From Dehalococcoidia bacterium (GTDB lineage: Bacteria > Chloroflexota > Dehalococcoidia > SM23-28-2 > RBG-16-64-32), in assembly GCA_963665775.2 (NCBI GenBank), contig CAXXTF010000002.1, positions 224,001 through 288,000 on the forward strand: a stretch of 64,000 bases of DNA. The letters are read 5' to 3'. Made by a program: the position numbers and the translations under genes. Positions 1-19,126 of this stretch are shown here, one piece after another (positions within the stretch are counted from its first letter, which is position 1; every line of letters starts with the position of its first letter). Under the pieces are notes generated by a model, which ran no database searches, had not been told where the DNA came from, and was given only the letters and a program-made list of their open reading frames with translations.

Positions 1-297
1 TATCCCTGCTAATCCTGAGCGGAGCGATCCAGAAACCGCCTCAATAGTTCGAGTTGGTCGTCGCCGGGTTCGGCGAGGTCAAAGGCCCCGACATAGCTAA
101 TCGTGTCGCCATCCTGAGGAATATAGCCGCCCCAACCGGGCACCCTGCGGAACTTCGCATTTGGCGCAGCCGCCGTCAAGCTATGCGCACCTGTGGGGGC
201 TCAAAATACGCGCTGATACCCCCGACGTTCGATTTGGCTGCTTAGTACCCGCTGCTCGGCCACCTGGTGGGCCTCGCTCCAAGGCCCAGGGGAAGGG

Positions 298-317
298 ACA
301 CTATTCAGCCATAGCGT
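298..317. repeat. Palindromic 7-6-7 putative recombination site (ACACTAT-tcagcc-ATAGCGT)
   Basis: Inverted arms around a 6-bp spacer; 19 bp (303-321) identical to 28225-28243. Confidence 0.7.
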
Positions 318-521
318 GCGGCTTCGTGGTATGAGCCGCAGCAGGCCGGCCCAGAATCCTCACAACGTCTTGTACCAAGATCTCGTCGTTCGCCTTCGAA
401 TGATTTTCTTGTCAAAGAACCCCAATAAGTTAGCGCTACTATAGCTTGTCTCAATTGACCGTATATGATATATGCCTAACATCAGCCTTAGAGTGGGCTG
501 ACGTTCACGTAAGGAGTTACC

Positions 522-2327
522 ATGGAAGAGAAAAACGGTTACTGGCAACGATACTGGCGCAGGAGGCTGACCCGGCGCACTTTGCTACGCGGCACGGCGC
601 TGGGCGCAGCCGGCCTGACGGCAGCGGCAATCGTCGGTTGCGGGGATGATGAAGAGGGGGTGGCGAGCCCGACGGCGACCCCTGCCGCCACGACTCCTTC
701 TGCCACGACGCCTTCCGCCACGGCGACACCGGTGATCAAGCGGGGCGGCCTCCTACGAATAGCCAACCGTTCACCGATCGCCTCCTTTGACCCTAACAGG
801 TCCACCGGCGGCGGGTCGCTGAACACCTTGGATCTCATTTACAGCCGGCTATTCAAGATGGCCTCGGGGCCCGGTACCCCGGTGTGGACGAGCAAGACGG
901 AAGGGGACTTGGTCAAGTCCTCCGATATCTCCCCCGACGGGCTCGTCTATACCTTCAAGCTCAGGGATAACGTAATGTTCCACCCACCCGTGAGCCGGCT
1001 CATGACAGCCGACGACGTGATTTTCTCCTGGCGACGTTTCAAGGGGGAGATTCCCGGCACTGAACCCGCCGCCGAAGTACAAAGACTTGCCTTTGTCAAA
1101 TCGGTGGAAAAGGTCGACGGCCTGACCGTACGCTTCACTTTGGACGAGCCCATCGGCACTCTCTTTGCCCAGCTCGTAAACCCCCACAGCCTGGCCATCT
1201 TTCCCCAGGAGATCGGCACGGCCTTCGACTCGGCGACGGAGGCAGCGGGGTCGGGACCGTTCATGCTTGAGAAGCACGACATCGGCAGCGTGGTCACTGT
1301 CCGTAGGAACCCCGATTGGCACTTTGGGCCCGATAAGCCCTACCTGGATGGGATCGAGCAGTTCATCATCCCTGAGTACGCCACCCAGTTCACCCAATTC
1401 CTTGGCGGAAATCTTGACCGGCTGACGGCCGTGCGGCCTACGGACTTAAAGCGAGTGATGGACACGGTGGAGGACGTGGTACTGGACATCTATTCCGGAG
1501 GATCGGTGCACGTTGTCGCCTTCTCCGGGAACGAGCCGGCGGCTCCCTGGACAAACCCGCTGGTGCGGCAGGCCCTCTCCATGGCCATCGATCGCGAGAC
1601 CATGGCCGAGGCCGCCTACGACTACACGGGTCTCAAGGCCCTGGGTATAGACGTTGAACCCGTCATAAATAACTTCTTCCCTTCGGGATACACGGACTAT
1701 TGGCTTAACCCACGAGGCACCGTGATTAAGCCGGAGAACGCCCGCTTCTTTAGCTTCGACCAAGAGGGGGCCAAGAACCTCCTGGCGCAAGCCGGCTATG
1801 GGGACGGATTCAGTGCTAAGTTCCACTATGTTACGACCTTCCCCTCGGAATACACGAAGATGGCCGAGCTGATGGTCCAGTATTGGGGCCAGATCGGAAT
1901 CAATTTTACACTGAGTGCGATCGACTACAGTGCTGACTACGCCCCAAAGATTCGCAAAGGTGACTTCGAAGGCCTGGCCTATATCATAGCGGGCGGCTCG
2001 CCCGACCCGGTGGATTTAGTGTCATTCATGTATGCTAAGGACGGCCCGCGCAATCCTAGCCGGGTCGACGACCTCGCCATCCAGGCCGCAATCAAGAAGA
2101 TCCAGCTTAATCCAAGTGAGGCCGAGCGGATTCAAGGATCCCTGGACCTGCAGAACGGACTCCTGCCTGAGAATATGTACTACATACCGACTCCAGGGGG
2201 CTCGGGCCCCGTGATTAACGCTAACCAAGCGTACATGAGAAACGTAATAGAGTATCACACGGTTGGAGGTTCGGGCGTCTACACAAACTCGGTCAACTTC
2301 CCCAACTTCTGGAGGGCCGACGTTTAG
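522..2327 (+). CDS. Peptide/nickel ABC transporter substrate-binding lipoprotein (family 5), Tat-type signal
   Basis: TRRTLL twin-Arg motif, IVGC lipobox, P/T linker, GSGPF and VRQALSMAIDR motifs; GGAG RBS. Confidence 0.92.
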   Translation: MEEKNGYWQRYWRRRLTRRTLLRGTALGAAGLTAAAIVGCGDDEEGVASPTATPAATTPSATTPSATATPVIKRGGLLRIANRSPIASFDPNRSTGGGSLNTLDLIYSRLFKMASGPGTPVWTSKTEGDLVKSSDISPDGLVYTFKLRDNVMFHPPVSRLMTADDVIFSWRRFKGEIPGTEPAAEVQRLAFVKSVEKVDGLTVRFTLDEPIGTLFAQLVNPHSLAIFPQEIGTAFDSATEAAGSGPFMLEKHDIGSVVTVRRNPDWHFGPDKPYLDGIEQFIIPEYATQFTQFLGGNLDRLTAVRPTDLKRVMDTVEDVVLDIYSGGSVHVVAFSGNEPAAPWTNPLVRQALSMAIDRETMAEAAYDYTGLKALGIDVEPVINNFFPSGYTDYWLNPRGTVIKPENARFFSFDQEGAKNLLAQAGYGDGFSAKFHYVTTFPSEYTKMAELMVQYWGQIGINFTLSAIDYSADYAPKIRKGDFEGLAYIIAGGSPDPVDLVSFMYAKDGPRNPSRVDDLAIQAAIKKIQLNPSEAERIQGSLDLQNGLLPENMYYIPTPGGSGPVINANQAYMRNVIEYHTVGGSGVYTNSVNFPNFWRADV

Positions 2328-2462
2328 AAGGGCCTTCAGCGGGGTATTTATGGAGCAAAGTGGCAGCATCTCCTTCTACCTAGCAAGGGCGGTGTAGACT
2401 ACCCGTGCTTCTGGAGGGCCGACGGCGAGAAGGGGTCCGGGTAGGACACCCAAAGGAGTTCA

Positions 2463-3410
2463 GTGCAGCGTTACTTAGCTAGACGGCTTCTCCTGGTGAT
2501 CGTGACCCTGATCGGGGTGTCGATGGTGGTGTTTATGGCCGTCCGCTTCTTGCCGGGGGACGTTGTTGTACAGCTAGCTGCGGAGCTGGGCGCCTCTCCC
2601 GAGTTCCGTGCGGCCATAGAAAAGAAGTATTCCCTGGGCGAGAACCTTCCCCAGCAGTACTTTGAATGGGCGGGCGATGTCCTATCCGGCGACCTGGGAA
2701 CCTCAATCATTAGCACTCGGCCCGTCGTAGATGAGCTGAAGGTCCGGCTGCCGCCTACTTTCCAGCTCGGCCTGATGGCCATGACCATCGCGCTGATCAT
2801 CTCCCTGCCGGTGGGCATTCTTTCCGCCATCCGTCAGGATTCTTTTATCGACTTTGTGGCCCGCAGCTTCGCTATCGGCCTGCTGGCGACGCCCAGCTTC
2901 TGGATCGGCCTCCTGGCCATCAGCTACGGGTTCATCTGGTTGGGCTGGACGCCGCCGTTGCGGTATCACAATCTGTGGGAGGACCCGGTGGCCAACATTA
3001 AGCTAATGTGGGTGCCGGCCCTCATCCTAGGCACTCACATAACTGGTACGGTCATGCGCCTGACCCGTTCGACGATGCTCGAAGTCCTCCGCCAGGACTA
3101 CATTCGGACTGCTTGGTCCAAGGGCCTTCGGGAGCGCGTCATTGTCACCCGGCACGCGCTGCGCAACGCTATTATCCCGGTGATTACTGTCATCGGTATG
3201 CAAGTCCCACTGCTGTTGGGTGGTACGGTTATCCTGGAATTCATCTTCTCGATCCCGGGAATGGGTAGTTACTTCTTGCTCTCCATTCAGCTAAGGGATT
3301 ATCCAGTGGTGCAGATCGTTGTCTTGATCTCGGCCGTGGCCGTAGTTATGAGCAATCTCGTCGTCGATCTGGCCTATTCGCTCTTCGATCCGCGGGTTCG
3401 TTACGCGTAG
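2463..3410 (+). CDS. ABC transporter permease, DppB/OppB family
   Basis: GDLGTS, DYIRTAWSKGL, RHALRNA and DPR motifs. Confidence 0.93.
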   Translation: MQRYLARRLLLVIVTLIGVSMVVFMAVRFLPGDVVVQLAAELGASPEFRAAIEKKYSLGENLPQQYFEWAGDVLSGDLGTSIISTRPVVDELKVRLPPTFQLGLMAMTIALIISLPVGILSAIRQDSFIDFVARSFAIGLLATPSFWIGLLAISYGFIWLGWTPPLRYHNLWEDPVANIKLMWVPALILGTHITGTVMRLTRSTMLEVLRQDYIRTAWSKGLRERVIVTRHALRNAIIPVITVIGMQVPLLLGGTVILEFIFSIPGMGSYFLLSIQLRDYPVVQIVVLISAVAVVMSNLVVDLAYSLFDPRVRYA

Positions 3411-3415
3411 AAGTC

Positions 3416-4312
3416 ATGGCTAGCGAATCGACTGTCTTAAAAGAGATCAGCCGTCCGGTCGATCTTACCCGCTGGGCAAAGGGGCTGTTACGTTTCGCCA
3501 GGCAGAAACCGCTCGGCACTTTCGGGGCCGTTGTTATCCTTATATTCCTCCTAGCGGCAGCGTTCGCAGACGTCGTAGCGCCCTATCGCTTCGACGACTT
3601 CGACATTCCGGGACGCTTCAGCGCGCCCAGCATCCACCACTTCTTTGGCACCGATGACCAGGGACGTGACGTTTTCAGTCGTATAATCTACGGGGCCCGC
3701 ACATCGGTCTTCACCGGCTTTGGGGTGGTGGCCATAACGACGGTGCTGGCCACTACCATCGGAATAATCTCCGGCTATTACGGCGGACTGGTCGACCTCA
3801 TCATGCAGCGCCTGGTCGATGTCTGGATGTCGTTTCCCGCGTTGGTCTTCCTTATTTTGTTTGCGTCGATCGTTGGGACGAGCATATTAACGCTCACCCT
3901 CGTGATATCCGTTCTGTTTGTGGCCCGCTCCTCACGGGTCATACGCAGCGCCACGCTGACGATCAAGGAAAATACGTACGTTGATGCTGCCAGAGTCCTC
4001 GGCTGCCGTGACATGCGCATCGTGCTACGTCACATTCTGCCGAACGTGGTTCCCATCATCCTCATTACAGCCTCTATCCAGATAGGTGCTGTCATCCTGA
4101 TCGAGTCGTCGCTATCTTTCCTTGGCTATGGTATTCCGCCCCCCTTCCCTTCCTGGGGCCGTATGCTTAACGAATCCCGGCTCGACATGATAAATCACCC
4201 GTACCTAGCCCTATTTCCAGGAGCAGCGATCGCTCTTACGGTGTATGCGTTCAACATGTTTGGCGACGCCCTGCGGGATGTACTGGATCCCCGTATGCGC
4301 GGATCAAGTTGA
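3416..4312 (+). CDS. ABC transporter permease, DppC/OppC family
   Basis: GTDDQGRDVFSR, YVDAARVLG, PSWG and GDALRDVLDP motifs. Confidence 0.93.
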   Translation: MASESTVLKEISRPVDLTRWAKGLLRFARQKPLGTFGAVVILIFLLAAAFADVVAPYRFDDFDIPGRFSAPSIHHFFGTDDQGRDVFSRIIYGARTSVFTGFGVVAITTVLATTIGIISGYYGGLVDLIMQRLVDVWMSFPALVFLILFASIVGTSILTLTLVISVLFVARSSRVIRSATLTIKENTYVDAARVLGCRDMRIVLRHILPNVVPIILITASIQIGAVILIESSLSFLGYGIPPPFPSWGRMLNESRLDMINHPYLALFPGAAIALTVYAFNMFGDALRDVLDPRMRGSS

Positions 4313-4932
4313 GGCAATGCATCCCTGTTTCTCGCTGACCCCTTTACCATCGGAGCCGGATGGTGGATGCCCTAGAGGTCTAGCCGCTCCGCCCTTGCCA
4401 GCCGGATGGGAGAGTGGGCACGGTTGCCGGATCCACGATCCGGGCCGCTATCCACCCGGCCCTCCAGATACGCTCTGCTCCGGGCAACAAGGCGGAACGA
4501 AGTCTGTGCCACACATTACGATGTTGACAGGAGGCGGTCTGGGAGTATTCTGGTTCCGCTAAGACACCTCTAACCACATCCGGTACTTATACGCCCAGGA
4601 ATTAAAGTAGCGCCAATAGGCCAGCGAGGCTGGGGGATGTCTCTCCTACGCGCAGCGCTGGCCGTCTCACGCGACCTGGGCATCCGCCCCCTCGTGGTGC
4701 GAGTCCTCTCCCAGCGAGATCCCGTCTCCGACTTAAACCCAATGCGTCTGAATCCTGACCGTAACGGAGTGCGTTTTCCTCGGGGTTCCTGAATCTGCGC
4801 CGTCGCGCCTAGAGCTAGATGCTTGGCAAGCAATCGGTCTAGACCGATTGACCTGTTTAGATACGGAACAGGTTCTGCCGATATCTCGGCACTCAAGCAA
4901 GCCACGAATGGTCATCGTCGTGATTCATGGTG

Positions 4933-4952
4933 ACACCATTAACTCATAGTGT
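4933..4952. repeat. Palindromic 7-6-7 site (ACACCAT-taactc-ATAGTGT)
   Basis: Same spacer and right arm as 29678-29697; A/B homology starts here. Confidence 0.75.
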
Positions 4953-5457: not shown

Positions 5458-6369
5458 TCACATACCAGTGTCCAGACCCCTTTCCGCTTCTGCTTTCAGG
5501 ACCTCCAAGAGGTGCCCGCCCAACTCCCCCATCTCTCGATCATAGGAAACCGGCACCCAGTCCGCTGGGTCCTCTCGGATACGCCTCGCGGATTCAGCGT
5601 CTTCCTCAACCTCTTCCCACACGAGCGCCCGGGCCTTATCCACCGGGAAGACGCTCTCCCGTCGCCAGGCATTGCTGGGCGAAGCGCCATCCTTCATCTC
5701 GTCGAGTAGGTCCTCGATCAAGGGCCGGTCGTACTCCGAGATCTGCCTGACAATGCCGGTGGCGAACCCTTCAGCGAAGTCGAGCCCGATCGCCCTGCTC
5801 TCGTCGACCAAGTAGCCGTAGATCGCCTTCACGTCGCCCGCTAGTCGGCGGGCGCGGCCGATATGAAACTCCAGCGCCTCCGCTATCCGCTCATCGAGCT
5901 GAATGCCGCCCTTCTTGCCGAATGGCGATCGTTCTTTATTGCCCCAGATGCCCAGGCGGACGGTGCCGACGGTGACTCGCAGTTCCAACGGTTCGCCGGG
6001 CTTGAGGTTAGGATTCTTCACCAGCAGGGCGTCGGCGACGGCGGGGTCGAAGACGATGGCCTCCTCCAACTCGACGAGCGCCCGCTCGAACCAGAGGATG
6101 CGGTCCCGCAACAGGAGCTGCCTCCGAGCTTGGTCGACAAGCCGGGTCAGAAGATCCAGGTTCTCCAGGAGCGACTTGTATCGGCCGATTACGGTGTTGT
6201 AGCGGGTGCCTTCCTGGGGGTTCAGCGCCCGAACCATTTTGTGGCGGTCGCCCGGCGAGAGCACCGGCTCCTTGCGGAGGCCATCCTCGATGTCCAGGCG
6301 CGCCTTCTTTTCTGGCGACAGGCCGCTAATGATCTCTTGCAGGCGCTTCTCTGGCGACGTCATGGGCAC
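5458..6369 (-). CDS. Conserved hypothetical core protein, element A
   Basis: Full-length paralog at 32873-33778. Confidence 0.8.
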   Translation of the reverse strand: MPMTSPEKRLQEIISGLSPEKKARLDIEDGLRKEPVLSPGDRHKMVRALNPQEGTRYNTVIGRYKSLLENLDLLTRLVDQARRQLLLRDRILWFERALVELEEAIVFDPAVADALLVKNPNLKPGEPLELRVTVGTVRLGIWGNKERSPFGKKGGIQLDERIAEALEFHIGRARRLAGDVKAIYGYLVDESRAIGLDFAEGFATGIVRQISEYDRPLIEDLLDEMKDGASPSNAWRRESVFPVDKARALVWEEVEEDAESARRIREDPADWVPVSYDREMGELGGHLLEVLKAEAERGLDTGM

Positions 6370-6756
6370 CTATCCTCTCGGCTTCCTCCGGACGCTGTCC
6401 TCCAGGGCTCGCAGCCGTTCATCGAGGGTGCCTTTCTCCAGGAGGTTAACGCTTACTTGGGCCAGGTAGGCCAGGGTGCGGGAGCGTGCGATCGAGTTTT
6501 CTTGCGACAGGGTGTCTACGACTGCGACTTCGATGAGCCTTCGGATCTGGCCGACGGTCTCCAGCCCTTCGATGTCATAGGCGCTGGAGACGGCCTTCTC
6601 CTTGCGTCTGCGAAGGCCGCCCAGCCGCCTGGCCTCTGTCACCTCCTCGGCGTGGTCCGGCGAGTGCCAGAGGCAGAGGTCGCCGTCCTGCAAGGGAGCG
6701 GCCCGACAGGGTGTACCGTCGTCTTTGACGAACTTACAGGTACGAGCCGCCACCAT
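6370..6756 (-). CDS. Zn-finger (C..C..C..H) helical protein, element A
   Basis: CKFVKDDGTPC...CLWH; paralog at 33786-34163. Confidence 0.8.
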   Translation of the reverse strand: MVAARTCKFVKDDGTPCRAAPLQDGDLCLWHSPDHAEEVTEARRLGGLRRRKEKAVSSAYDIEGLETVGQIRRLIEVAVVDTLSQENSIARSRTLAYLAQVSVNLLEKGTLDERLRALEDSVRRKPRG

Positions 6757-6861
6757 TGACCACCTCTGCTAATCGGGGCCCTCGAAACGAGGCAGACCCC
6801 CGGAGGGGCCTGCCGTGCGCGCTATTCGGTTGTTGTGGGAAGTTCAGGCGGTCTCGAAGTC

Positions 6862-7251
6862 CTACGGCCAGTGGCCCTTGGGGCACCCCTGTGGCTCGAC
6901 GCCCTCCGGCGCCTGGAAGGGCTCCTGGCAGGCCGAGCAGAAGAAGAGTCCGTCCTCTAGATGGCTGATCAGGCCGTTGACCCGGTTGCCGTTGGACTTT
7001 GATGGCTTGATGGCTGCCTTCTTCGGCTTGGCCTCCTCGCTGCCAGCCAGGCTCCAGAAGCGCCAGCCGTTGCAGGACTTGCCGCCCATGACGGCGCTGC
7101 CGGCGGAAGATGGGCTGCTGTACTCGTGGCCGTCCTTCAGCCGGTAGCGGATACCGTCGTCTGCTTCGACCACCTCCGCCGTATACTCCTGGCCCTTGTA
7201 GCGGGCCACGAGACGCGTTCCAGGTGGTAGGTTCCTGTTCTCGATGGGCAT
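6862..7251 (-). CDS. RAMA/DUF2924-like protein with C-terminal Zn ribbon
   Basis: YSSPSSAG..V.G..CNGWRFW motif; CSAC...CPKGH; RBS before MPIEN. Confidence 0.7.
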   Translation of the reverse strand: MPIENRNLPPGTRLVARYKGQEYTAEVVEADDGIRYRLKDGHEYSSPSSAGSAVMGGKSCNGWRFWSLAGSEEAKPKKAAIKPSKSNGNRVNGLISHLEDGLFFCSACQEPFQAPEGVEPQGCPKGHWP

Positions 7252-7278
7252 GACGCCCCTCCTCTGAACTTGGTGCTC

Positions 7279-7309
7279 CATAACTCACTCTGGCCGGGAA
7301 CGAAGTCAA
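7279..7309 (-). promoter_or_regulatory. Promoter-like motif TTGACTT-N9/10-CWGAGYGA
   Basis: Recurs at 17021-17049 and 34708-34738, each just upstream of a minus-strand gene. Confidence 0.5.
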
Positions 7310-8550
7310 CGGGTCTTCCCCTCCTTCTCGGCCTTAAGGCCGGTGAATGACTCCCAACGGGCGATCGCTATCCGGCAATAGTGTGGGTCCAGTTCTAGGC
7401 CATAGCAGACCCTCCCTGTCCGCTCGGCGGCGATGAGGGTGGTGCCGGAACCGAGGAAGAGATCGAGGACGATGTCGCCCGGTCGGCTGCTGTTCTCGAT
7501 GGCCCGCTCCACCAGGGCCAGTGGCTTCATCGTGGGGTGCAGCTCCGACTCCGATGGGCGGGGGATCGTCCAAACGTCACCCTGATCGCGGTCGCCGCAC
7601 CAGTGGTGCGCGGCTCCCTCCCGCCAGCCGTACCAGATGGGCTCGTAAGCGCGCTGGTAGTCAGCCCGGCCGAGGGTGAAGCGATCCTTGGCCCAGATAA
7701 TGGTGTCCGACCAGTGGCCGCCAAGTTCCTCCAGGACACGGGAAACTGTCGGCCACTCCTTCGTGGACATGCAGACGTAGAGGGCTCCCTCGACACTGGT
7801 CAAGAGATTCTTGGCCCAAGCCCGGCAGAACGCCTCCCACTCTTCAGGCTCAAGAGCGTCGTTCTTGATTCGGCGCTTGCGGGTGCCGCGCTGCTGGCCA
7901 CCGTGGTCCCCATAGCTCACGTTGTACGGCGGGTCCGTGAAGGCCAAGGAGGCCTGCCGTGTGTCTGCCAGGCGGCCAACGTCGCCGCCCTCGGTAGCAT
8001 CGCCGCACATGATGCGATGGTCGCCGAGTTGCCAGACCTCGCCGCGCTCAACGCCAGGGTCTGGTTGGGCTGCCTCCAGGGCTGCATCGAGGTCAAACGA
8101 CTCGGGGCGGTTCCGTTTCTCGCGGCTGTCGAGGGTGCGGAGCAGGTTCTTGATTTCGTCCTCCGCGAAGCCGGTGAGAGTAATGTCGACATCGGGGGTG
8201 TCCTGGAGATCGGCGAGAAGGCGGGCCAGTAGCTCCTGGTCCCAGTCACCGGCGATGCTGTTGAGAGCCAGGTTCAGGAGCTTGGCCTGCTCGGTAGTAA
8301 TGTTGAGGTAGATGACCGGCACCGTGTCTAGGCCGAGCCGGCGGGCAGCGAGGAGGCGCTGGTGACCGCCGATGACCACCGAGTCCTGGCGCCGGGCGAT
8401 GATGGGGTCAACTAGGCCAAACTCCCGGATGCTGCGGGTGAGCGCATCCAGTTCGGTATCAGAGATGCGGCGGGGGTTAAAGGGGTCGGGGCGCAGATCT
8501 TCAACGCATACGTAATCGACCTCAAGCTCGTCACGAATGCTGCTGGGCAT
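7306..8550 (-). CDS. ParB/Srx-N domain fused to N6/N4 DNA methyltransferase, element A
   Basis: NPR and GHQRL ParB motifs; DPPY, HPTMKP and DLFLGSGTT motifs. Confidence 0.92.
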   Translation of the reverse strand: MPSSIRDELEVDYVCVEDLRPDPFNPRRISDTELDALTRSIREFGLVDPIIARRQDSVVIGGHQRLLAARRLGLDTVPVIYLNITTEQAKLLNLALNSIAGDWDQELLARLLADLQDTPDVDITLTGFAEDEIKNLLRTLDSREKRNRPESFDLDAALEAAQPDPGVERGEVWQLGDHRIMCGDATEGGDVGRLADTRQASLAFTDPPYNVSYGDHGGQQRGTRKRRIKNDALEPEEWEAFCRAWAKNLLTSVEGALYVCMSTKEWPTVSRVLEELGGHWSDTIIWAKDRFTLGRADYQRAYEPIWYGWREGAAHHWCGDRDQGDVWTIPRPSESELHPTMKPLALVERAIENSSRPGDIVLDLFLGSGTTLIAAERTGRVCYGLELDPHYCRIAIARWESFTGLKAEKEGKTR

Positions 8551-10964
8551 CAGAGCACGTCCTCGGTTTGAATGGGCGGTCTCGACTTCTCTTCCAGTTC
8601 ATGGGCGGCTTTGCTGAGACGGTCCCGGTCTGCGCGGCCGACAAACGTTTGCCAGGCCGCTCGTCCCGCAATAACAGTCTCTCCTGGCCCAATCGGGAGC
8701 GCCGGAAATTCCAGTTCCTCCGCCAGCGCGAACGCGTAGGTCTGTAATGGTTGTTTGTCTGTGTCGGGGTGATCCTTGATGCGGTTCAACCGTTCAACCG
8801 CGTCCGCCTCAGCTCCGGTTTCTATATCTATATCCAGAGTGAGGGGCGGTTGAATGCCCGGTTGAATGGGGGTTTCAACCGCGCTTTCAACCGGCTCCTC
8901 GGATTCGGGATGTACCTGTTGATCACCATCCGGTTGAACGGTTGAACGGGAATCCTGCTGGTCGGAGCACACGAGCTCCTCAAGCCTTTCGGGGGTAGGC
9001 AGTGCCGGATGATCGTCCGGTGGAGGTTCGCCCGGTACGAGCCTTGCCGGCTGCCCCTTCTTTGTCTCGAGGTTAACAATATGGCCAAGGGAGATCGCGC
9101 GTTTCACTCGATACCACGAGGTATCCCGGGCCAGCCCAAGCTTCTCGCCGACCGCCTTGATAGTGAGGGGGTGCTGCCCGTCGTAGAGTTCGTGTACGGC
9201 GGCGATGGTCTCCCGAACCTGCTCTGTGAGTCCGCCGCTGGCCGATGCGGAGAAGGTATCGAGCAGAATCTGGCGGGCCACACGGTAGTCGTCGATCTCG
9301 GCGATGATCCTTCCGATGGAGTCACGTTGTCGCTGTATCTGATACAGCAGCGCAACGGTCTGGATTACCGTAAGGAGCTGGCGGAAGTCCCTCCGCATCC
9401 GCACTAATCGGTCGGGCACCGCATTAGCGAGGGCGTGCGCGAATGGAATCGTGACCGTACGGTCGCCGGCGATTTCAAGCCAGCGCTGCAGGTCGATGAA
9501 GGGCGTAAGGTCGTATGCAGGATCGACTCCGTTGACGCTCGCCGCGTGAGATAGGAGGACGGCTCGTGTCTGTCCGGGAGTATCGTCGACAGTCACTGCG
9601 AGGAGGCGGGTGCCCATCTGCTCCCCCAGCCGCCTGGTCGATGTCGTAATCAGCCCGGTGGGGCCGGGCTTTTCGATCCTGCGGGTCTTGAATTGGCCTG
9701 TGGCTGGGTCCTTCTCTACGACGTCGTAGCACATGACGAAATCGGAGGCGATCGAGCGGACGGCGGAAGCGGCCGGCCCGTCTTCCGGGATGGAATCGGC
9801 CTCGCACACGACCACTATCCGATGGGCGAAATCGGCGTCAGCGTAGACAAGGGCTCTGGCGCTGCCCGCCTTCTCCAGGTGATAGGCTTCAGCGGGCATG
9901 AGCTCCAGGGCGGCGTCGACGGCTCGGTTCTTGCCGGCGCTCGAAGGGGCGATGAAGGCGAGGTTTAGTGGCCGCTCCAGGAGGCGTGAAGTGAGGGAAA
10001 TGTAGGCCAGTAGTGGGGGCGTCAGATTGCCCGCGTAGCCACTTGAACTAACGGCCTCTCCAATCTTGTCGAGGAGATCAAGGGCCTGCAAGAGTTCGCG
10101 CACATGTGAGTAGAGCCTTCTAGCCTCGTCGCTCAGCGCGTCGGCCCGGATTTCAGATGCGGGCCTAGCTGAGGCCATCAACATCTCCAATCGAGCCCGA
10201 AACCGCACTGGGTCTCGCTCAACTGCTAGCCACAGGGCGTTCGGGTCTTTTGCCTCTGCCGGGGCCTCGATCATCCGGACATCGGGAAGGTCGGCGGCTA
10301 CCCCGGAAACGAGGCTGTCGCCGCCGCGATCCGGCTCGTGCCAGACGTAGACCTCGTCGATTCCCGCCGCATGGGCTCTCCAAGCCTCCTTCCAGGTACT
10401 CGCCCCGGGAATGCCGAGGGCGGCCAGGCCAGCATTCCAGAGCGTCCAGGAGTCGGATTCCCCCTCCACGAGGATGAGCTTTCCCTCGGATCGTGCCTTG
10501 TCGAGCCGCCAGAGGCCGTAGGGAACGGCCTTGTCGCCCCGCCGCCACGCGAACCGAGGCTCACTAGCAAGACTGAGCCTCTTCCGGAGCGATATGATCT
10601 CTCCGTTTCCGTCCAGGTAGGGCACGTCGACACATTTTGTCCTTCCAGAGCCGAAGATTCCCTCCGCGACGCCGAGTGATCTCAGGAATTCGACCGAGAG
10701 ACCCTTTGCCTCAGCGAGTTCGGACAGGGACAAGCCGGTTGGCCCACGATCAGGTAGCGGGATACCGAGGCGCTGGGCGAGGTCCAACGCGCCGCCACCC
10801 ATACCGCAGACATCGCAGTGCCAAACGGCCTTCGCTTTGTTCCAGCGGGCTGATGGGTGCTGATCGTCGTGCGCTGGGCAGAGGAACCGGATTTCTCCCC
10901 GTTCGGGCTTTCCCTGGCGGGCCATCACAGCTGCCTCGATTTGGGCTAGGAGGTCAGGATCCAC
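8550..10964 (-). CDS. Zn-finger/Toprim primase fused to P-loop ATPase, element A replication protein
   Basis: CPAHDD..CDVC zinc finger, VEGESD and EPDRGG Toprim motifs, APSSAGKN Walker A. Confidence 0.85.
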   Translation of the reverse strand: MDPDLLAQIEAAVMARQGKPERGEIRFLCPAHDDQHPSARWNKAKAVWHCDVCGMGGGALDLAQRLGIPLPDRGPTGLSLSELAEAKGLSVEFLRSLGVAEGIFGSGRTKCVDVPYLDGNGEIISLRKRLSLASEPRFAWRRGDKAVPYGLWRLDKARSEGKLILVEGESDSWTLWNAGLAALGIPGASTWKEAWRAHAAGIDEVYVWHEPDRGGDSLVSGVAADLPDVRMIEAPAEAKDPNALWLAVERDPVRFRARLEMLMASARPASEIRADALSDEARRLYSHVRELLQALDLLDKIGEAVSSSGYAGNLTPPLLAYISLTSRLLERPLNLAFIAPSSAGKNRAVDAALELMPAEAYHLEKAGSARALVYADADFAHRIVVVCEADSIPEDGPAASAVRSIASDFVMCYDVVEKDPATGQFKTRRIEKPGPTGLITTSTRRLGEQMGTRLLAVTVDDTPGQTRAVLLSHAASVNGVDPAYDLTPFIDLQRWLEIAGDRTVTIPFAHALANAVPDRLVRMRRDFRQLLTVIQTVALLYQIQRQRDSIGRIIAEIDDYRVARQILLDTFSASASGGLTEQVRETIAAVHELYDGQHPLTIKAVGEKLGLARDTSWYRVKRAISLGHIVNLETKKGQPARLVPGEPPPDDHPALPTPERLEELVCSDQQDSRSTVQPDGDQQVHPESEEPVESAVETPIQPGIQPPLTLDIDIETGAEADAVERLNRIKDHPDTDKQPLQTYAFALAEELEFPALPIGPGETVIAGRAAWQTFVGRADRDRLSKAAHELEEKSRPPIQTEDVL

Positions 10965-11238
10965 GGGGTCCCTCCACCAGATCGATGTCTATTCCCACAA
11001 CCTCGTCGGTTCGCTCGCCCACATTGGCCCTTGGCCACCGCTCCCACCAGTTGGTGATCGTATCGGAATCTTTCGAAGCGTACTTTAGGCCATGTGCGGT
11101 GAGGGGATGCTTGCCTGACAAAGGGCAGATCTCACCTTTTGGGCATTGGCAGACTCCAACATCGTCAGTCCACCAGATCGGCAGGAGGCACGCGCCCTCG
11201 CGGGCGCGTGCCAGGGCGGCCTGCTGCAGAGGGTTCAC
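10954..11238 (-). pseudogene. N-terminal fragment of bifunctional primase/polymerase (Prim-Pol)
   Basis: GKHP..HG..AS.D...I..WW..WP.ANVG...GIDID; ends just after DxD. Confidence 0.7.
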
Positions 11239-11459
11239 TACCGGTTAAGCCTCCGAAATGGCGGCCCGTCGTCCACTCCACCCGGGTGATGGCGCTTTCT
11301 TGCGCGATACCGGCGATCGCGCTCGAGCCTTCGGGTGCGACGTTCCTGTTCTTTCTCAAGTTTTCGCTGTGCCTGAGCTTCCCTCATGGCCGTGACATCG
11401 GCCTCAAGTCCTGGTAGGGGCGGGTTAACCATGTCGACCAGATCAATCTTGCTTCTCAT
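11238..11459 (-). CDS. Small basic hypothetical protein
   Basis: GGAGG RBS; overlaps both neighbours. Confidence 0.5.
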   Translation of the reverse strand: MRSKIDLVDMVNPPLPGLEADVTAMREAQAQRKLEKEQERRTRRLERDRRYRARKRHHPGGVDDGPPFRRLNR

Positions 11460-11575
11460 GGAACACCTCCAAGCCCACTCGTGCCGGCTACATTCGACCG
11501 ACGGTCGCCAGTCGTTAAGTCGGGCGCTATCATGTCAGGCAGGATGGCAGCCACTGCGCGAATCTCTGGTATCAC
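11456..11575 (-). CDS. 39-aa ORF coupled to the recombinase stop (possible primase N-terminal relic)
   Basis: GTGA overlap with recombinase stop, ATGA overlap with next ORF; ILPDMIAPDL resembles ILPDIIPPEL of the element B primase. Confidence 0.4.
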   Translation of the reverse strand: MIPEIRAVAAILPDMIAPDLTTGDRRSNVAGTSGLGGVP

Positions 11576-13188
11576 AGCTGTAAGACCCTTCGCGCCACTG
11601 TGTAGTTCTGACCTTCACGGGTGCCCCTGCAAGTCGAGACTACGGAGGGGAATCGGTATTCAACGACCGCGCTGGCGTGCTTGCGGCCGTCGCGCAGTTC
11701 CGTCTGCACCGTGATGCGTCTAACGAGCAGACGCACGATTTCTTGACGCTCCTCATCGCGGAGCCCTCCATCCAGGCGGCGGGTTATTTCGGCCAGGAGG
11801 TCGGGCGTCACCTCCAGCGCCTCCTCCGGATCTTCCTCGGGGCCCAAAGCAACAAGCCGCCGCTCTATCTCCGTCCGCTTGGAGGCGATCTCGCCCAAAC
11901 AGGTTTCCAGTTCTTCTGGGGTGAGATGCCCCCGAATGCGGAGGTCAAGGGCCCTCTTACGCTGCTGGTCGAGGTCGCGAATTGCAGCGGTAAGCGTGAT
12001 GGACTCCGCCTCAGCAACGGCTGCCTGGCCGCCGCCGCAGGATTCGATCGCCAGCTCGTCGAGCAGCTCGCCTGGGCTTCGGAGAAAGCGTTCGATGTCG
12101 GACCAGATGAGGGGCTCGATGGTATCGCCTCTGACCGACTTCCCATTGCAACGTCCCTCTATGGGGCCGCGCTCGACTAGCTGGCCGTTGCAGCGATACC
12201 AGGCGGCGCCGTTGCTCGTGCTGCCACAGTAGTTCAGGCCACAGATCCCGCAGCGGATTACGGAACGCAGTAGATAGGTTCGCTTGCTGTTCTTGGGGAT
12301 GATTCGATTGCGGGCCAGGGTTTCCTGGGCGGCGTACCAGACATCATCCGACACCAGGGGCTCGACAGGGGCAGAGATGACTTCCCGCCCGCCTACCCGG
12401 CTGCTACGCCGCCCAAATTGCAGCACGCCGCGAAACACAGGATTGACCACCAGGTTGCGAATGCGACCTGGTCGCCATATTCCTTGCGTTCGTTGGTCAC
12501 GGATGCCCCGGCCGTCTCGCTCGTATACTGTGGGAACACAGAGGAGGTTCAATTCATTCGCAATCCAGCGGCAGCTCTTACCTTCTACGCCCAACCAGTG
12601 GTAGATCCGGCGAACCAGGTGGGCGGCACTCCAGTCGCCCCAGATGAGGGTCTCGTCTGGCATGAGTCGGGCGGTCTGACGTCGTCCTTCCACTCGGTAA
12701 CCTAGGGGCACGATACCGCCGGTGTAGCGGCCTTCCCGTGCGGCGCGGTCCATGCCCCGAGCTGAGTCCGCTAGGAACTGGCGTCGCGCATAGCCAGCCA
12801 TGATGGACTGGAATCCAAAGATCGTCCGGTCGCCCAGCGATTCAGCGACCCCGATCAGCTCAATGCCCAGCAGGTCAACGAAGAGGTTGTAGGTGGTCAG
12901 GAGGTCGACCTCCTCACGGCCGAGCCGGCTCGCCCGCAGCACGATTATCTTGAGGAACTTCCCGGCTTTCGCGTCGGCGATCAACTGGCCGCCGGCGGGG
13001 CGTAATGCCATGGGTATCGTTCCGGAGAGGCCGTCGTCATCGTAGTAGCGGTAAAGGCGGTAATGGGGGTTCTGAGCGAGGAAGCGATCGATGGCCTCCC
13101 GCTGCGTCTTGATGGTCTCGCGGTCGCGCTGGTCATCGCTTGAAACCCGGAGATACGCCGCCACGGGGATGGCTTCTTGGTCTGTCAT
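11572..13188 (-). CDS. Large serine recombinase (integrase); 3' end spans the att site
   Basis: YLRVSS catalytic Ser, DDGLSG, SRLGR, recombinase domain, CGICG Zn ribbon, coiled coil. Confidence 0.95.
   Translation of the reverse strand: MTDQEAIPVAAYLRVSSDDQRDRETIKTQREAIDRFLAQNPHYRLYRYYDDDGLSGTIPMALRPAGGQLIADAKAGKFLKIIVLRASRLGREEVDLLTTYNLFVDLLGIELIGVAESLGDRTIFGFQSIMAGYARRQFLADSARGMDRAAREGRYTGGIVPLGYRVEGRRQTARLMPDETLIWGDWSAAHLVRRIYHWLGVEGKSCRWIANELNLLCVPTVYERDGRGIRDQRTQGIWRPGRIRNLVVNPVFRGVLQFGRRSSRVGGREVISAPVEPLVSDDVWYAAQETLARNRIIPKNSKRTYLLRSVIRCGICGLNYCGSTSNGAAWYRCNGQLVERGPIEGRCNGKSVRGDTIEPLIWSDIERFLRSPGELLDELAIESCGGGQAAVAEAESITLTAAIRDLDQQRKRALDLRIRGHLTPEELETCLGEIASKRTEIERRLVALGPEEDPEEALEVTPDLLAEITRRLDGGLRDEERQEIVRLLVRRITVQTELRDGRKHASAVVEYRFPSVVSTCRGTREGQNYTVARRVLQL
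11602..11643. other. attP-like junction between tandem elements A and B
   Basis: 20-bp arms match 14/20 as an inverted repeat around central TG (11622-11623); 11597-11630 identical to 38852-38885. Confidence 0.85.
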
Positions 13189-13190
13189 CG

Positions 13191-13346
13191 CTAAGCCTCC
13201 TGCCCGAACGGTGGCCGCTTTGGGAGCCCGAGGACTACACGCAAGGCCGCCAGCATGGCCCGTTCGTCAGGGTCGTAGTAACGCTCTAGTAGGGGGGCTG
13301 AATCAAGGCGTCCAGGCCTCGATTCCCTCCAATCGTTTTGCGACAA
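13191..13346 (-). CDS. 51-aa ORF directly upstream of the integrase (candidate accessory factor/RDF)
   Basis: TTG start after GGAAGGGGG; ends 2 nt before integrase ATG; ...ERYYDPDERAMLAALRVVLGLPKRPPFGQEA. Confidence 0.4.
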   Translation of the reverse strand: MSQNDWRESRPGRLDSAPLLERYYDPDERAMLAALRVVLGLPKRPPFGQEA

Positions 13347-13468
13347 GCGAAACCCCCTTCCGAGGCCGGGCCTGCCAGCGAGGCCACCAGAAGGGAGTCA
13401 GAGGAATATTCTTCTTCTGCTTGCCCTGGTTAGCAGGCCCAGACGTTTAGGTCTTCACCTGCCTTGGC

Positions 13469-13505
13469 GTGACTAACATCGTCACAATGTGACGCGGCAC
13501 GTCAC
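13469..13505. promoter_or_regulatory. Two tandem GTGAC-N7-GTCAC palindromes (operator-like)
   Basis: 13469-13485 and 13489-13505, 20-bp period, upstream of the integrase operon. Confidence 0.5.
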
Positions 13506-14743
13506 GAAGAGACGCGACCCAGATCAATGCTCCAGAAGACGGGCTCGTGGGGGTGGTAACTGAAATCGGAGCCGCGGACGATGGAGTTTCTCAGATATTG
13601 GGCCATGCGAGGAAGAACCTCTTCAATGGCTTGATATACCCGCTGAAGGGCGTGCCAGACACTGCTGCGGGCGCGCTCCGATTGAGCTACCACTTTCCGA
13701 GGCTTGCCTCGAATGCCAAGAGCTCCCGCCAAATGATCGCGAATCGTCTGCAATTCGTGTTCTTCTGCATCAGAGAGGCCGAGGCTGCCCTTCTTAGCAT
13801 CAAGTTCCTCGATTCGCCGCTGGTATTGCTGGCGCGCCTCTCTATCTACCAGGTCTTCATTGTCGTACCCGGTCGACGACGCCAGGGCAGCTAGATCCTC
13901 GTTGCCGGTGCGGGTAGTGGGTAGGTGCCCTTCAGCCAAGGCGACGAGTTCCATGGCTCGAAATGTCCGTCCGGGATGCTGCAAAAGGTGCGCTAGATAG
14001 AGCATCCTGACTCGATGGGGAATGGTCTCAAGCTGGTTGTCATAGACGAGTTCCCACAGTTTGCCCCGCCTGCGTAGTGAATACGGAGTATTGATGGCCT
14101 GCCCGGGGCCACCTAGGGCAAGACCTGAGAAGTCGAAGTGAAGTTCGGTCCCCTCCAGGCGCATGGCATGGCCGAGCGGCAGCCAGTTGCCGGGCGGACT
14201 CCAACTTGGGCTCTCCTGACTAAGGACAAAGAGTACGGCTGTTGGCTCGCGGGGAAGGTTCCTGTCGAAGACTGAGATTGCGTCCGGCCAGCACGCCCCT
14301 CGGAGGAGATACGCGGGCCGTGGCCCGGTCGGCGGTGAGGCAAGGCCCAGGCTCCAAGAGCGGCCACGGATTACTTCGGCTGGAGTGGCCTCGGTTTGAA
14401 GCGCGACTCCCAATTTCTTCGCGATAGTGCCGGGATCGACGCGCCACTGCCACAGACTGCTGGGCTCCAAGAAGACACGACCGTTGTTTGGGCAGGGGAT
14501 GAATGGCCGCGGCGGTAATCCTCCTGATTCGAGGAACAATACCCGCTCTGAATGCGGTTCATCACACTCCTCGCATGATACGCGATCCAGCGCTGATGAC
14601 CGCAGCAGGAACCCCGCTTCCTCCAGACTATCCACGGCTCCAGCAGGCCAGAGACTGGCTTCGTTCGCCAGCACTACCCTGGGCGCGTCCCCCGCCAGGT
14701 CAGCGCGGCGAAGCAGGTCGTTAACGATATCGATGAGCGTCAC
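13502..14743 (-). CDS. Hypothetical protein with CxxC and a possible C-terminal regulator-like domain
   Basis: 413-aa ORF; CEEC..CP; YLAHLLQHPG...ERARSSV pattern recalled from regulator C-termini. Confidence 0.7.
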   Translation of the reverse strand: MTLIDIVNDLLRRADLAGDAPRVVLANEASLWPAGAVDSLEEAGFLLRSSALDRVSCEECDEPHSERVLFLESGGLPPRPFIPCPNNGRVFLEPSSLWQWRVDPGTIAKKLGVALQTEATPAEVIRGRSWSLGLASPPTGPRPAYLLRGACWPDAISVFDRNLPREPTAVLFVLSQESPSWSPPGNWLPLGHAMRLEGTELHFDFSGLALGGPGQAINTPYSLRRRGKLWELVYDNQLETIPHRVRMLYLAHLLQHPGRTFRAMELVALAEGHLPTTRTGNEDLAALASSTGYDNEDLVDREARQQYQRRIEELDAKKGSLGLSDAEEHELQTIRDHLAGALGIRGKPRKVVAQSERARSSVWHALQRVYQAIEEVLPRMAQYLRNSIVRGSDFSYHPHEPVFWSIDLGRVSS

Positions 14744-15945
14744 GCGAGGACGAGGTCGGGCACCTGTTCAAGGCCCGAATCAACCAGCACTTTGCGAATC
14801 ACGCCGTCCATGCCCTCCTGATCCAAGAGGCAACCATTGCGGGTCAGAGTGAAAGTCCGCGTCCTGCCTCGACGTCGCTTGCCCAAGGGGCGGAAAAAGG
14901 CTTGGAGCTTGGCCTTGTCAACGTCCATCAGGGCTAGAGGGTATCGGTCGGTTTGGGGGCCGGGACTGGTCGCGAAGTACTTGTCGGCTGCGAAGATGAC
15001 CCCAAGCCCGGCAGGGCCACCGACCTGCAGGATTAGTTGTCGACCTCCGTCCCGGTCGCGTAGATGTATCCACTTCACTTCGATGCTCTCGAGGCCAGTG
15101 GATGCGTCGATAACGAACGAGAAGCCCGCTTCCTTCAAGAGATCGAGGCGATAGGCCCTTTCGGCGCCTGGGTCGGCCCCGAGGTCGATACCCAGAATCG
15201 TTCTGGCGAATATCTCTTGCAGGTCCCGGACCTTGTCCTTCGCACCCTGGCAAAACGTTTCGAGCATGTGGCGGTCAGGCGAATAGAAGAACAGGAGATC
15301 CGTCGCGGGTCGGTACTTGCGGCGCACTAGCTTCTCTTCCTCGTACTCAAGCATCGTCTGCCCATAGTCTTCGGGGTACGCGATGTATAGATACCCGGTG
15401 GATCGTTGCAGCCATTCCACATGGCAGTGTTGACCGCGACCCTCCCGCTGAAGTAAATACCCCGTTAGCTGTGCCGACAGGCGCTTCCACCCGGCTTCAC
15501 TCGTATCGGGCTCAGCTTCCGGTATGCCGCGTCTGCGACGCCAATACCGTGCGTTTAGGGTGTCGGCACCTCGAAAGCGGAGGATGTCGGCAAAGAGATC
15601 CTCACGGTTTACAAGGGCCCATATGGCAACGTCGTAGGCACCATCCAGATCAGTAAGCACTCGCGTAAGGTCTTCACCCTGGAAGCGCGCCTCCTCGTAG
15701 AGAAGCCGCATCCCTTCAACGTCCGCAAGTTCGTATACATCTTGGAGGTCTTGGTCTAGGTCTGTCTGCTGGGCGGATGGAAGTCGTTGAAGCGCATCGC
15801 AAAGGGCTTCGACATCCGCATCTTCTTGGTGGAGACAGGGGACGTCTAACAGGGGTCGACGTGCTCCGAAGTACTCGCGCACGAGCGCCCAGGAGATATG
15901 GTGGAGGACCCCTTTTCTAGAGAATGCGTAGCGGCGCTTCGACAT
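14740..15945 (-). CDS. Hypothetical protein
   Basis: 401-aa ORF with 4-bp overlap to the next gene. Confidence 0.75.
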   Translation of the reverse strand: MSKRRYAFSRKGVLHHISWALVREYFGARRPLLDVPCLHQEDADVEALCDALQRLPSAQQTDLDQDLQDVYELADVEGMRLLYEEARFQGEDLTRVLTDLDGAYDVAIWALVNREDLFADILRFRGADTLNARYWRRRRGIPEAEPDTSEAGWKRLSAQLTGYLLQREGRGQHCHVEWLQRSTGYLYIAYPEDYGQTMLEYEEEKLVRRKYRPATDLLFFYSPDRHMLETFCQGAKDKVRDLQEIFARTILGIDLGADPGAERAYRLDLLKEAGFSFVIDASTGLESIEVKWIHLRDRDGGRQLILQVGGPAGLGVIFAADKYFATSPGPQTDRYPLALMDVDKAKLQAFFRPLGKRRRGRTRTFTLTRNGCLLDQEGMDGVIRKVLVDSGLEQVPDLVLA

Positions 15946-16059
15946 GGGTCCGGTGCTCTCGTGGTACGGCTAGCTTACCAATGTTGGCTCTATTCTAACC
16001 CATCTTGGACAGGGCGTGTAGGCACTTTAGCTAAAATGCCATAGGGCAGCGCCCATGAG

Positions 16060-16998: not shown

Positions 16999-17037
16999 CT
17001 CTTGTTCTCAAGTCAGTAAGCATGTTCGCTCTGACGC

Positions 17038-17057
17038 ACACGAAGTCAAGTTAGTGT
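17038..17057. repeat. 7-6-7 site (ACACGAA-gtcaag-TTAGTGT) overlapping the recombinase -35 box
   Basis: 9-bp arms with 1 mismatch; TTGACT on the minus strand at 17044-17049. Confidence 0.6.
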
Positions 17058-18156: not shown

Positions 18157-18160
18157 ACCA

Positions 18161-18180
18161 CCACTATGGCGCAATAGTGG
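18161..18180. repeat. 7-6-7 site (CCACTAT-ggcgca-ATAGTGG)
   Basis: Perfect 8-bp arms, 4 bp after the upstream stop. Confidence 0.7.
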
Positions 18181-18290
18181 TCGCCCGTTGAGGTAGTCCC
18201 GAATCCCGCACGGGCGGCTTCCGGATGTAGTGGCTGTACAGCGTTGAAGCGTCGTCGTACTCTCGATCTTTTCTGTTAATCTACATCTCG

Positions 18291-19091: not shown

Positions 19092-19106
19092 CGCCATTCC
19101 GAGCGC

Positions 19107-19126
19107 ACGCTATGACCTGTGAGTGT
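19107..19126. repeat. 7-6-7 site (ACGCTAT-gacctg-TGAGTGT), reverse orientation
   Basis: Reverse complement GGTGACACTCA-caggtc-ATAGCGTGCG matches the extended arms of the 4933 and 298 sites. Confidence 0.7.

Follow-up and report, generated by a model that had tools for sequence, protein, structure and literature searches.

An ordered series of short palindromic sites with distinct spacers divides the cargo of tandem integrative elements in a Dehalococcoidia genome and points to spacer-matched cassette exchange

The stretch of DNA analysed here (the window, 64,000 nucleotides) covers positions 224,001 to 288,000 of contig CAXXTF010000002.1 of a Dehalococcoidia bacterium (C2:224001-288000), whose 2.35-Mb assembly (genome label G000) consists of two contigs, C1 and C2. 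It holds two integrative elements, A and B, in tandem in the gene comM, the complete one being element B (about 11631-38885). The variable middle of these elements is divided by 20-bp palindromic sites that share their arms and fall into classes by their 6-bp spacers. The classes follow one another in a conserved order and orientation, sites of the same class border unrelated cargo, stretches of homology end inside the sites, and the arrays are linked to the gene of a Xer-like tyrosine recombinase, named here TyrRec1. Judged from these comparisons, recombination probably takes place at the sites between matching spacers and exchanges segments between like slots.

Each site has the form ACACTAT-N6-ATAGTGT, with 7-bp inverted arms around an asymmetric 6-bp spacer. 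In element A, the sites bordering the cargo slot next to the conserved core read ACACTAT-TCAGCC-ATAGCGT (298) and ACACCAT-TAACTC-ATAGTGT (4933). Their counterparts in element B read TTACCAT-TCAGCC-ATAGCGT (28220), in which the left arm is degenerate and 10 of the 14 arm positions are kept, and ACGCTAT-TAACTC-ATAGTGT (29678). The motif ACRCYAT-N6-ATAGYGT, allowing up to 2 mismatches, gave 21 matches in the window counting both strands, corresponding to 11 positions, while shuffled versions of the window led us to expect 0.83 matches (largest count 6; 0 of 100 shuffles reached 21). All 11 positions lie within 1-35013 and none in the remaining 29 kb, and a relaxed scan added two weak sites, at 17038 (GTCAAG) and 26106 (CGACAC). 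The sites are nearly all intergenic and often directly past a stop codon, as is the one at 18161, located 5 bp beyond the stop at 18156.

Over the whole genome, 79 sites retain at least 11 of the 14 arm positions, against 18 in a reversed-sequence control, and 57 of them fall into recurring spacer classes (about 12) compared to none of the 18 control sites. CGACAC occurs 10 times, TAACTC 8, GCAGAC and TCAGCC 6 each, GAAGTC 5, GACCTG, CCACAC and CCGGCA 4 each, and GTCAAG and GGCGCA 3 each. The position profile of the sites shows information confined to the 7-6-7 core and none in the 10 bases on either side. Because no spacer class is its own reverse complement, a site has a direction, and the classes differ from one another at two bases or more, with the exception of CCACAC and CGACAC. 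Short, extragenic and repeated palindromes, about 60 per 2.35-Mb genome, could be sequences resembling repetitive extragenic palindromes (REP) or miniature inverted-repeat transposable elements, spread by a transposase and lying near the recombinase gene by accident. We consider this origin highly improbable, since no convincing Y1/RAYT transposase was found (one marginal Y1_Tnp match scores 20.8 bits against a 23-bit cut-off and reaches 23.4 bits only when in-frame neighbours are added), and the sites stand in fixed-order arrays, observed in many genomes, instead of being scattered, with an excess of the motif that tracks TyrRec1 (see below). As an observation on the 57 sites, their first spacer base is never A and their last never T, an avoidance that may mark the cleavage positions.

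In element B, the sites follow the order GTCAAG, GGCGCA, GACCTG, CCACAC, GCAGAC, GAAGTC, CGACAC, TCAGCC, TAACTC, core, CCGGCA, the region from TCAGCC to TAACTC being slot 8 of this ten-site series. An array on C1, located beside a second serine recombinase (93% identical) and a second TyrRec1 (91%), contains GTCAAG, GGCGCA, GACCTG, CCACAC, GCAGAC and CGACAC in the order and orientation seen in the window. Slot by slot, the two arrays share no homology in any slot: for instance, dockerin/cohesin-like proteins on C1 face an M1 peptidase in the window, and a beta-lactamase-fold protein faces an alpha/beta hydrolase. A third array, at C2:970010-981397, is the same series read backwards.

Slot 8 illustrates how cargo varies between identical borders. 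The initial annotation had placed an ATP-binding cassette (ABC) transporter operon and a tyrosinase between the same two spacers in the two elements, and both placements were recovered: an SBP_bac_5 binding protein and two permeases lie between TCAGCC (298) and TAACTC (4933), and the tyrosinase between TCAGCC (28220) and TAACTC (29678). The same ordered pair of unlike spacers is thus found around different cargo in at least two elements. In the genome, the slot exists in five copies with five unrelated cargos, namely the ABC transporter, the tyrosinase, a pyrroloquinoline quinone (PQQ) beta-propeller protein, an SRPBCC protein with a radical S-adenosylmethionine enzyme, and a PKD-domain protein with a sortase-like protein. 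As the same annotation stated, homology between A and B begins at the TAACTC site and is absent to its left: self-blastn has it start at 4929/29674, 4 bp before the TAACTC sites, with nothing homologous leftward. For the TCAGCC sites, the 19 identical bp that had been reported are there (303-321), while the 12 matches out of 17 reported further left shrink to 10 of 17 in an ungapped count.

The order was then counted over the genome, using 50 neighbouring site pairs less than 15 kb apart among 66 classified sites. Canonical order was found in 36 of the 50 (label shuffles: mean 11.5, maximum 20, 0 of 2000 reaching 36), a statistic that is partly circular, and hence inflated, as the canonical order was derived from this very genome; when the array that defines it is set aside, with its nine pairs, 27 pairs are ordered and 4 disordered. 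Two of the 50 pairs consist of sites of the same class.

Arrays of other genomes follow the same order. Relatives of TyrRec1 were found at 25 loci in other genomes (62-78% identity), according to the record labels mostly metagenome-assembled genomes (MAGs) of Dehalococcoidia or Chloroflexota, and two in one Thermoleophilia MAG. At many of these loci, the succession TyrRec1, 401-aa protein, 413-aa protein, serine recombinase is preserved in synteny, and on the array side a GACCTG site, or a one-base variant of it, stands in the same orientation at 16 of the 22 loci examined. In the 10 other-genome arrays having at least two classified sites each, 21 site pairs are concordant and 0 discordant (11 and 0 without ATTGCA and GATGCA, two classes added post hoc). 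All 49 classified sites of the recombinase-anchored arrays have an identical orientation. Regarding the cargo of 24 arrays, 201 of 231 open reading frames (ORFs) have no relative in any other array, a count that becomes 113 of 139 for ORFs of at least 150 aa. A conserved spacer order with variable cargo had been put forward as the test of the idea that spacers act as address codes and that cassettes swap between matching slots; the comparison of spacer order and cargo among genomes came out in its favour and suggests such a role for the spacers.

The core side of the element leads to a similar picture. Relatives of the 303-aa core protein were found on 15 metagenome contigs and in two genomes of the same order (42-55% identity), with the layout methyltransferase, TGTCGA, core, GCCTCC, cargo, then GTGTCG and/or GACTTC, the last two being the reverse complements of CGACAC and GAAGTC of the window. 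At least 7 different cargos adjoin the core in 10 metagenomic relatives. On one contig (G033:C4), the full layout from methyltransferase to TyrRec1 extends over 28 kb and the sites GCCTCC, GTGTCG, GTCTGC and CAGGTC appear in the expected order. G031, a complete genome from another family, has recurring spacer classes of its own, some common to the genome studied here and some not. In ESM Atlas, the 401-aa protein retrieved only unnamed, partly viral clusters, and the 303-aa core protein nothing. The viral contigs searched yielded one TyrRec1 relative, at a contig edge, and no core relative, so that they offer no free circular form for comparison.

From these comparisons, a broader proposition can be drawn, for which we see the chances as about even. 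One Xer-like recombinase and at least ten mutually incompatible spacers would together form an ordered, address-coded landing pad with several slots. The spacer alphabet (GACCTG, CCACAC, GCAGAC, GAAGTC, CGACAC and others) would be common to elements across Chloroflexota-type families, with GACCTG in at least one Thermoleophilia MAG, and any two elements that meet would swap cargo slot by slot while the backbone is kept, thereby forming a gene-exchange network with built-in addressing.

To locate the ends of homology, 212 pairs of sites of this genome with the same spacer were compared over 60 bp per side. Neither flank is shared in 187 pairs and both flanks are in 1, while 24 pairs share exactly one flank, with the identity stopping inside the site. 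For example, C1:778312 and C2:194822 match at 100% from the left flank to the end of the spacer, diverge in the right arm and have nothing in common past it, and C1:782059 with C2:218802 is the mirror case. The slot-4 cassette (22503-23544) has a copy at C2:980368-981415 with 96.7% identity, and both ends of this homology fall precisely within sites, CCACAC at one end and GCAGAC at the other. At CCGGCA sites, the relationship of the flanks depends on the side: 970010 and 983922 are 100% identical on the left and 87% on the right, and 231365 and 970010 are 65% identical on the left and 95% on the right. In addition, arm variants are class-specific and move together with their flank. One-sided homology at same-spacer sites gives comparative support to recombination between sites of identical or near-identical spacer. 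The earlier proposal that breakpoints lie at the sites holds for these 24 of 212 pairs and does not hold for some cassettes, whose boundaries were found off the sites. Loci L007 and L014 hold common cargo families in the same slot at the protein level only and, without nucleotide homology, are uninformative on breakpoints.

The same comparison bears on the possibility that the palindromes are protein-binding or RNA punctuation (operators, insulators, ParB-type sites or hairpins), their spacer classes being due to descent. In its favour, the sites form palindromes, nearly always lie between genes, often just past a stop codon, and belong to an element which encodes a ParB-domain protein. This explanation, which we hold to be improbable, leaves without cause the exact asymmetric spacers kept despite unrelated flanks (187 of 212 pairs), the fixed order and orientation, and a homology that stops within 20 bp. 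Moreover, Rfam at the gathering threshold indicated no family at the sites, its sole match in the window being a tRNA at 42012-42084, outside the elements in host DNA.

The limits of the elements were deduced from a 15-mer, CACGGGTGCCCCTGC, present at 11616-11630 and 38871-38885. Past 38885 comes the 3' part of comM, and past 11630 comes sequence that on C1 comes after the 5' part of comM. These contexts indicate that 38827-38885 is attR and that 11572-11630 is a tandem (attP-like) junction, and therefore that two elements stand in tandem. Halves of comM flank the element, and as expected for a large serine recombinase element, Resolvase, Recombinase and zinc-ribbon domains (Pfam) were found together with att repeats in the target gene. 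Only the right part of element A is in the window; on C2 it is preceded by a CGACAC site at C2:218802. The features of the window are the following.

298-317: site TCAGCC, left border of the element A cargo slot
522-4312, plus strand: element A cargo, with SBP_bac_5 binding protein (522-2327) and ABC permeases (2463-3410 and 3416-4312) (Pfam)
4933-4952: site TAACTC, at the start of A/B homology (4929)
5458-7309, minus strand: element A conserved core, proteins of 303, 128 and 191 aa without family match
7365-7384: site CCGGCA, in the 3' end of the ParB-N6/N4 methyltransferase gene (7306-8550, minus strand)
8550-11238, minus strand: element A replication module, 804-aa primase-like protein (CHC2 zinc finger) and 94-aa primase-like ORF
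11572-11630: tandem (attP-like) junction, right end of A and left end of B, with the 15-mer ending TGCCCCTGC as in attR
11572-13188, minus strand: large serine recombinase, integrase of element B (Pfam, NCBIfam)
13502-15945, minus strand: two conserved proteins of 413 and 401 aa, syntenic between both recombinase genes in relatives
16060-16998, minus strand: TyrRec1, Xer-like tyrosine recombinase, candidate enzyme for the 20-bp sites
17038-17057: first array site, GTCAAG, 40 bp upstream of the TyrRec1 start
17056-18156, plus strand: slot 1, metallo-beta-lactamase-fold hydrolase
18161-18180: site GGCGCA
18291-19091, plus strand: slot 2, alpha/beta hydrolase
19107-19126: site GACCTG, the most conserved class in relatives
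19534-22146, minus strand: slot 3, M1 aminopeptidase
22502-22521: site CCACAC
22583-23452, minus strand: slot 4, alpha/beta hydrolase, with a 97% identical copy, site to site, elsewhere on the contig
23526-23545: site GCAGAC
23745-24950, minus strand: slot 5, coenzyme A (CoA)-transferase family III
25169-25188: site GAAGTC
26106-26125: weak site CGACAC (10 of 14 arm positions)
26206-27486, minus strand: slot 7, flavin adenine dinucleotide (FAD)-dependent pyridine nucleotide-disulphide oxidoreductase
28220-28239: site TCAGCC, left border of the tyrosinase slot
28615-29529, plus strand: slot 8, tyrosinase, with a 71-aa ORF upstream
29678-29697: site TAACTC, border to the element B core
29977-32592: insertion in the element B core compared with A, including an rve-type transposase (30728-31591, minus strand)
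32873-34717, minus strand: element B conserved core, proteins of 301, 125 and 184 aa
34994-35013: site CCGGCA, in the 3' end of the ParB-methyltransferase gene (34944-36221, minus strand)
36181-38830, minus strand: element B replication module, 528-aa primase/helicase-like protein and 395-aa primase-polymerase
38827-38885: attR of element B; the 3' part of comM (Mg-chelatase family) covers about 38871-39353

TyrRec1 matches PF00589 at 69.1 bits (cut-off 27.1) and PF02899 at 25.4 bits (cut-off 22.3), and aligns with the structures of XerD (1a0p, E 1.4e-16) and archaeal XerA. Compared with 1a0p, it contains the motif residues R in TGRRRSE, K in GKGGK, HILRH, and DHS...TVY, to which we assign, on the assumption that they act as in XerD, the catalytic roles of R, K, HxxR, H/W and Y. 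The protein scores under the NCBIfam equivalog cut-offs for XerD (110.2 against 329.6 bits), XerA (110.3 against 220) and XerC (102.3 against 335), as well as under those for integron integrases (TIGR02249, 52 against 265 bits; NF011946, 32 against 435). In both full copies of the gene, a site lies 40 bp upstream of the start, and a third copy of this site with its flank was found at C2:60949, with no recombinase match nearby. TyrRec1 is present in 13 of 65 genomes of the order. Among 40 relatives, the motif exceeds its control in all six TyrRec1-positive genomes (+13 to +41) and has a median excess of about 0 in the 34 negative ones (Mann-Whitney p 2e-4, for genomes that, as kin, are not independent). 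This linkage in sequence suggests that TyrRec1 would be the enzyme acting on the 20-bp sites. Two other identities were discarded for the system. The integron was ruled out by the integrase score and the type of site. As for the host dif, every site of C2 is more than 30 kb away from the extremes of its cumulative GC skew, and on C1 only one site, of spacer class GAGTTA, is near the skew maximum.

Tyrosine recombinases in general exchange strands at both borders of a central region, and the central regions of the two partners must match. By this rule, unlike neighbours would not recombine and cargo would therefore not be deleted. In the mechanism that we propose, the sites would be the core recombination sites of the element-encoded TyrRec1 and would divide the variable middle of an about 27-kb integrative, self-replicating element, which a separate large serine recombinase would integrate into comM. 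Strand exchange would occur inside the spacer, hence only between sites of the same class, and unlike neighbouring sites within one element would leave the cargo in place. Between co-resident elements (in tandem, elsewhere in the chromosome, or as an excised circle able to replicate), one crossover at class X would give a cointegrate or hybrid, and a second one at class Y would exchange exactly the X-to-Y segment. The spacer order would be preserved, and each slot would acquire its own history and cargo. This model reproduces the fixed order, the arm variants that go with their flank, the mosaic switch at CCGGCA and the unrelated cargo in like slots. We infer that spacer identity is required, that unlike neighbours resist deletion and that exchange proceeds via cointegrates.

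Several observations weigh against spacer-matched exchange by TyrRec1. In addition to the circularity of the own-genome count, 4 of the 50 neighbouring pairs are disordered, one of them being the A-to-B tandem boundary, and 8 are in opposite orientation. CCACAC and CGACAC are one base apart, which makes the strict heterospecificity of that pair doubtful. A site marks just one end of the cassettes of a 488-aa protein, of 245- and 181-aa proteins and of the molybdopterin oxidoreductase p854, as it does for the cassette shared by loci L013 and L022, indicating that part of the cargo turnover is not site-mediated. An excess of the motif without TyrRec1 match was obtained in four relatives (G002, G017, G023 and G037), and a second tyrosine recombinase family, TyrRec2, with at least 3 copies (including those at C2:341890 and 359497; fragments at C2:218392 and C1:838179), also adjoins sites and may act on them. 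Finally, Logan contigs of runs X8, X10, X11 and X13 (3 samples, 2 studies), aligned to 10001-30000 of the window, show no joint at a site and no recombination event, contigs being data in which rare variants would be lost.

These contigs have the same arrangement as the window at 99% identity or above, with an identical cassette order in all four runs, and they bridge 17038-19107, 25169-26106 and 28220-29678. The slot-4 cassette, being repeated at 97% identity, accounts for the places where contigs break off (22548 and 23505), and a joint from 13206 to 16079 corresponds to the paralogous C1 copy. Runs X10, X11 and X13 show scattered single-base changes, and X13 alone has 6 extra bases behind 22806.

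A stable arrangement would also be expected if the sites, as true tyrosine-recombinase sites, served multimer resolution or inversion control of the replicating element, the order reflecting descent from one ancestor and most changes in cargo being due to ordinary insertion and deletion events. In resolution systems, the gene of a Xer-like recombinase usually has a site beside it, as TyrRec1 does, several cassette boundaries lie off the sites, and the core of element B carries an insertion containing an insertion sequence. Nevertheless, one site would suffice for resolution, yet about ten heterospecific sites are ordered across families, and this explanation does not predict the 24 one-sided same-spacer pairs, the cassette common exactly from site to site, or the flank relationships that switch sides across CCGGCA. 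We judge it unlikely and retain recombination between matching spacers as our preferred reading.

This arrangement resembles several known systems. In engineered recombinase-mediated cassette exchange, one recombinase acts on lox or FRT sites that have identical arms and different spacers, and a cassette placed between unlike sites is exchanged and not excised. The elements would likewise combine one recombinase, identical arms and differing spacers, but they would be a natural system, with about ten serial slots instead of one and a presumed dependence on spacer identity. As in integrons, a tyrosine recombinase gene lies divergently beside the first site of a cargo array; in contrast to integrons, TyrRec1 scores far below the integrase cut-off (52 against 265 bits), the sites are 20-bp palindromes of double-strand type and not long folded attC sites, which are imperfect, variable palindromes that recombine among themselves, the site order is fixed, and the cargo is multi-gene and on both strands. 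The recombinase fold and catalytic motif, as well as the inverted arms around a 6-bp centre, are shared with Xer/dif and Cre/loxP, which have one site per replicon where many heterospecific ones are found here. Tycheposons reportedly integrate too, carry a recombinase, a replication module of primase/helicase type and variable cargo, and sometimes stand in tandem. The elements are alike in being integrative, in their recombinase, primase/helicase module and variable cargo, and in their tandem arrangement, and we know of no internal heterospecific site series described in tycheposons.

By analogy, the closest described system appears to be the dif modules of Acinetobacter, whose mechanism may be alike. 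There, pdif sites on Rep_3 plasmids are recombined by XerC/XerD, published examples have arms such as ..CGTATAA/TTATGTTAA.. (PMC13141974, Table 1), and rearrangements involve pairs of sites whose spacers are the same or nearly so; the same report puts forward that one module can be replaced by way of a cointegrate, with matching spacers on each side. The dif modules and the present cassettes are both accessory gene modules bordered by short Xer-type sites with 6-bp spacers. The differences concern the arms (distinct XerC and XerD arms in an 11-6-11 format, against the same 7-mer inverted and nothing conserved outside it), the orientation (alternating C/D and D/C, against one orientation for 49 of 49 sites) and the enzyme (host Xer acting on Rep_3 plasmids, against an element-encoded recombinase beside the first site). 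Arms of the same 7-bp sequence point to one recombinase and not to XerC plus XerD. Furthermore, the platform here is a chromosomal integrative, self-replicating element of Chloroflexota-type genomes, and about ten spacer classes have a fixed order that is conserved between families. A literature search, whose coverage left out most subscription journals and supplements, returned no description of an ordered heterospecific site series in an integrative element.

Should the proposed mechanism be correct, the elements would be a natural counterpart of multi-site cassette exchange, in which a stable backbone is kept while ordinary metabolic and surface genes move among copies and among hosts, in a group that has small genomes and has received little study. 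The spacer-matching logic of dif modules would then extend to another phylum, with a dedicated recombinase and ordered slots, and about ten orthogonal sites for one small recombinase would be useful in genome engineering. The proposal also provides a testable model in which short conserved linkers drive the modular evolution of mobile elements.

Further observations were made on the elements and their relatives. The insertion in the core of element B is 2.6 kb long and flanked by a diverged 54-bp duplication (29923-29976 and 32593-32646), and its transposase has 99% identical copies elsewhere on the contig. The CCGGCA sites at 7365-7384 and 34994-35013 lie within the last codons of the ParB-methyltransferase gene; at this position relatives have a different spacer (TGTCGA or TGCCAG), so that recombination there would swap the C-terminal tail of the protein.

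The gene comM is split across contigs, with its 5' half and attL on C1 (762306-763340) and its 3' half and attR on C2. On C1, the comM side carries the second serine recombinase, the TyrRec1 copy and the array that ends at a CGACAC site; on C2, element A starts at a CGACAC site, after which comes the same molybdopterin-oxidoreductase cassette of 2.5 kb. Either the sequence was rearranged at the CGACAC site or repeat, or the assembly was joined wrongly. At the end of C2, the cumulative GC skew stands at -19868 and has not come back to zero, and C1 and C2 may thus be parts of one chromosome and not two replicons.

At locus L016, a CCACAC and a GCAGAC site are 77 bp apart (8679-8795, array side), which makes a nearly empty slot, and judging by its GGTTCGATCCC motif, the filler may be the 3' portion of a tRNA. 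L017 and L018 are the TyrRec1 loci (66-68% identity) of the Thermoleophilia-labelled MAG, which belongs to a different phylum from the other matches; the GACCTG site of L017 keeps 10 of its 14 arm positions, and a weaker candidate at L018 keeps 9. These loci suggest that the element has passed from one phylum to another, or else that the binning was wrong. In this genome, the non-canonical succession of TAACTC then CCACAC was found twice (C2:1438329-1440013 and C2:1002579-1004221), one of these slots carrying TyrRec2 and the other a major facilitator superfamily (MFS) transporter. Lastly, the 854-aa molybdopterin oxidoreductase has at least 6 copies in the genome (75-99% identity; for example C2:219128-221692, C2:58134-60695 and C1:782385-784946), three of which are 98-99% identical, and two of these three come after a CGACAC site.

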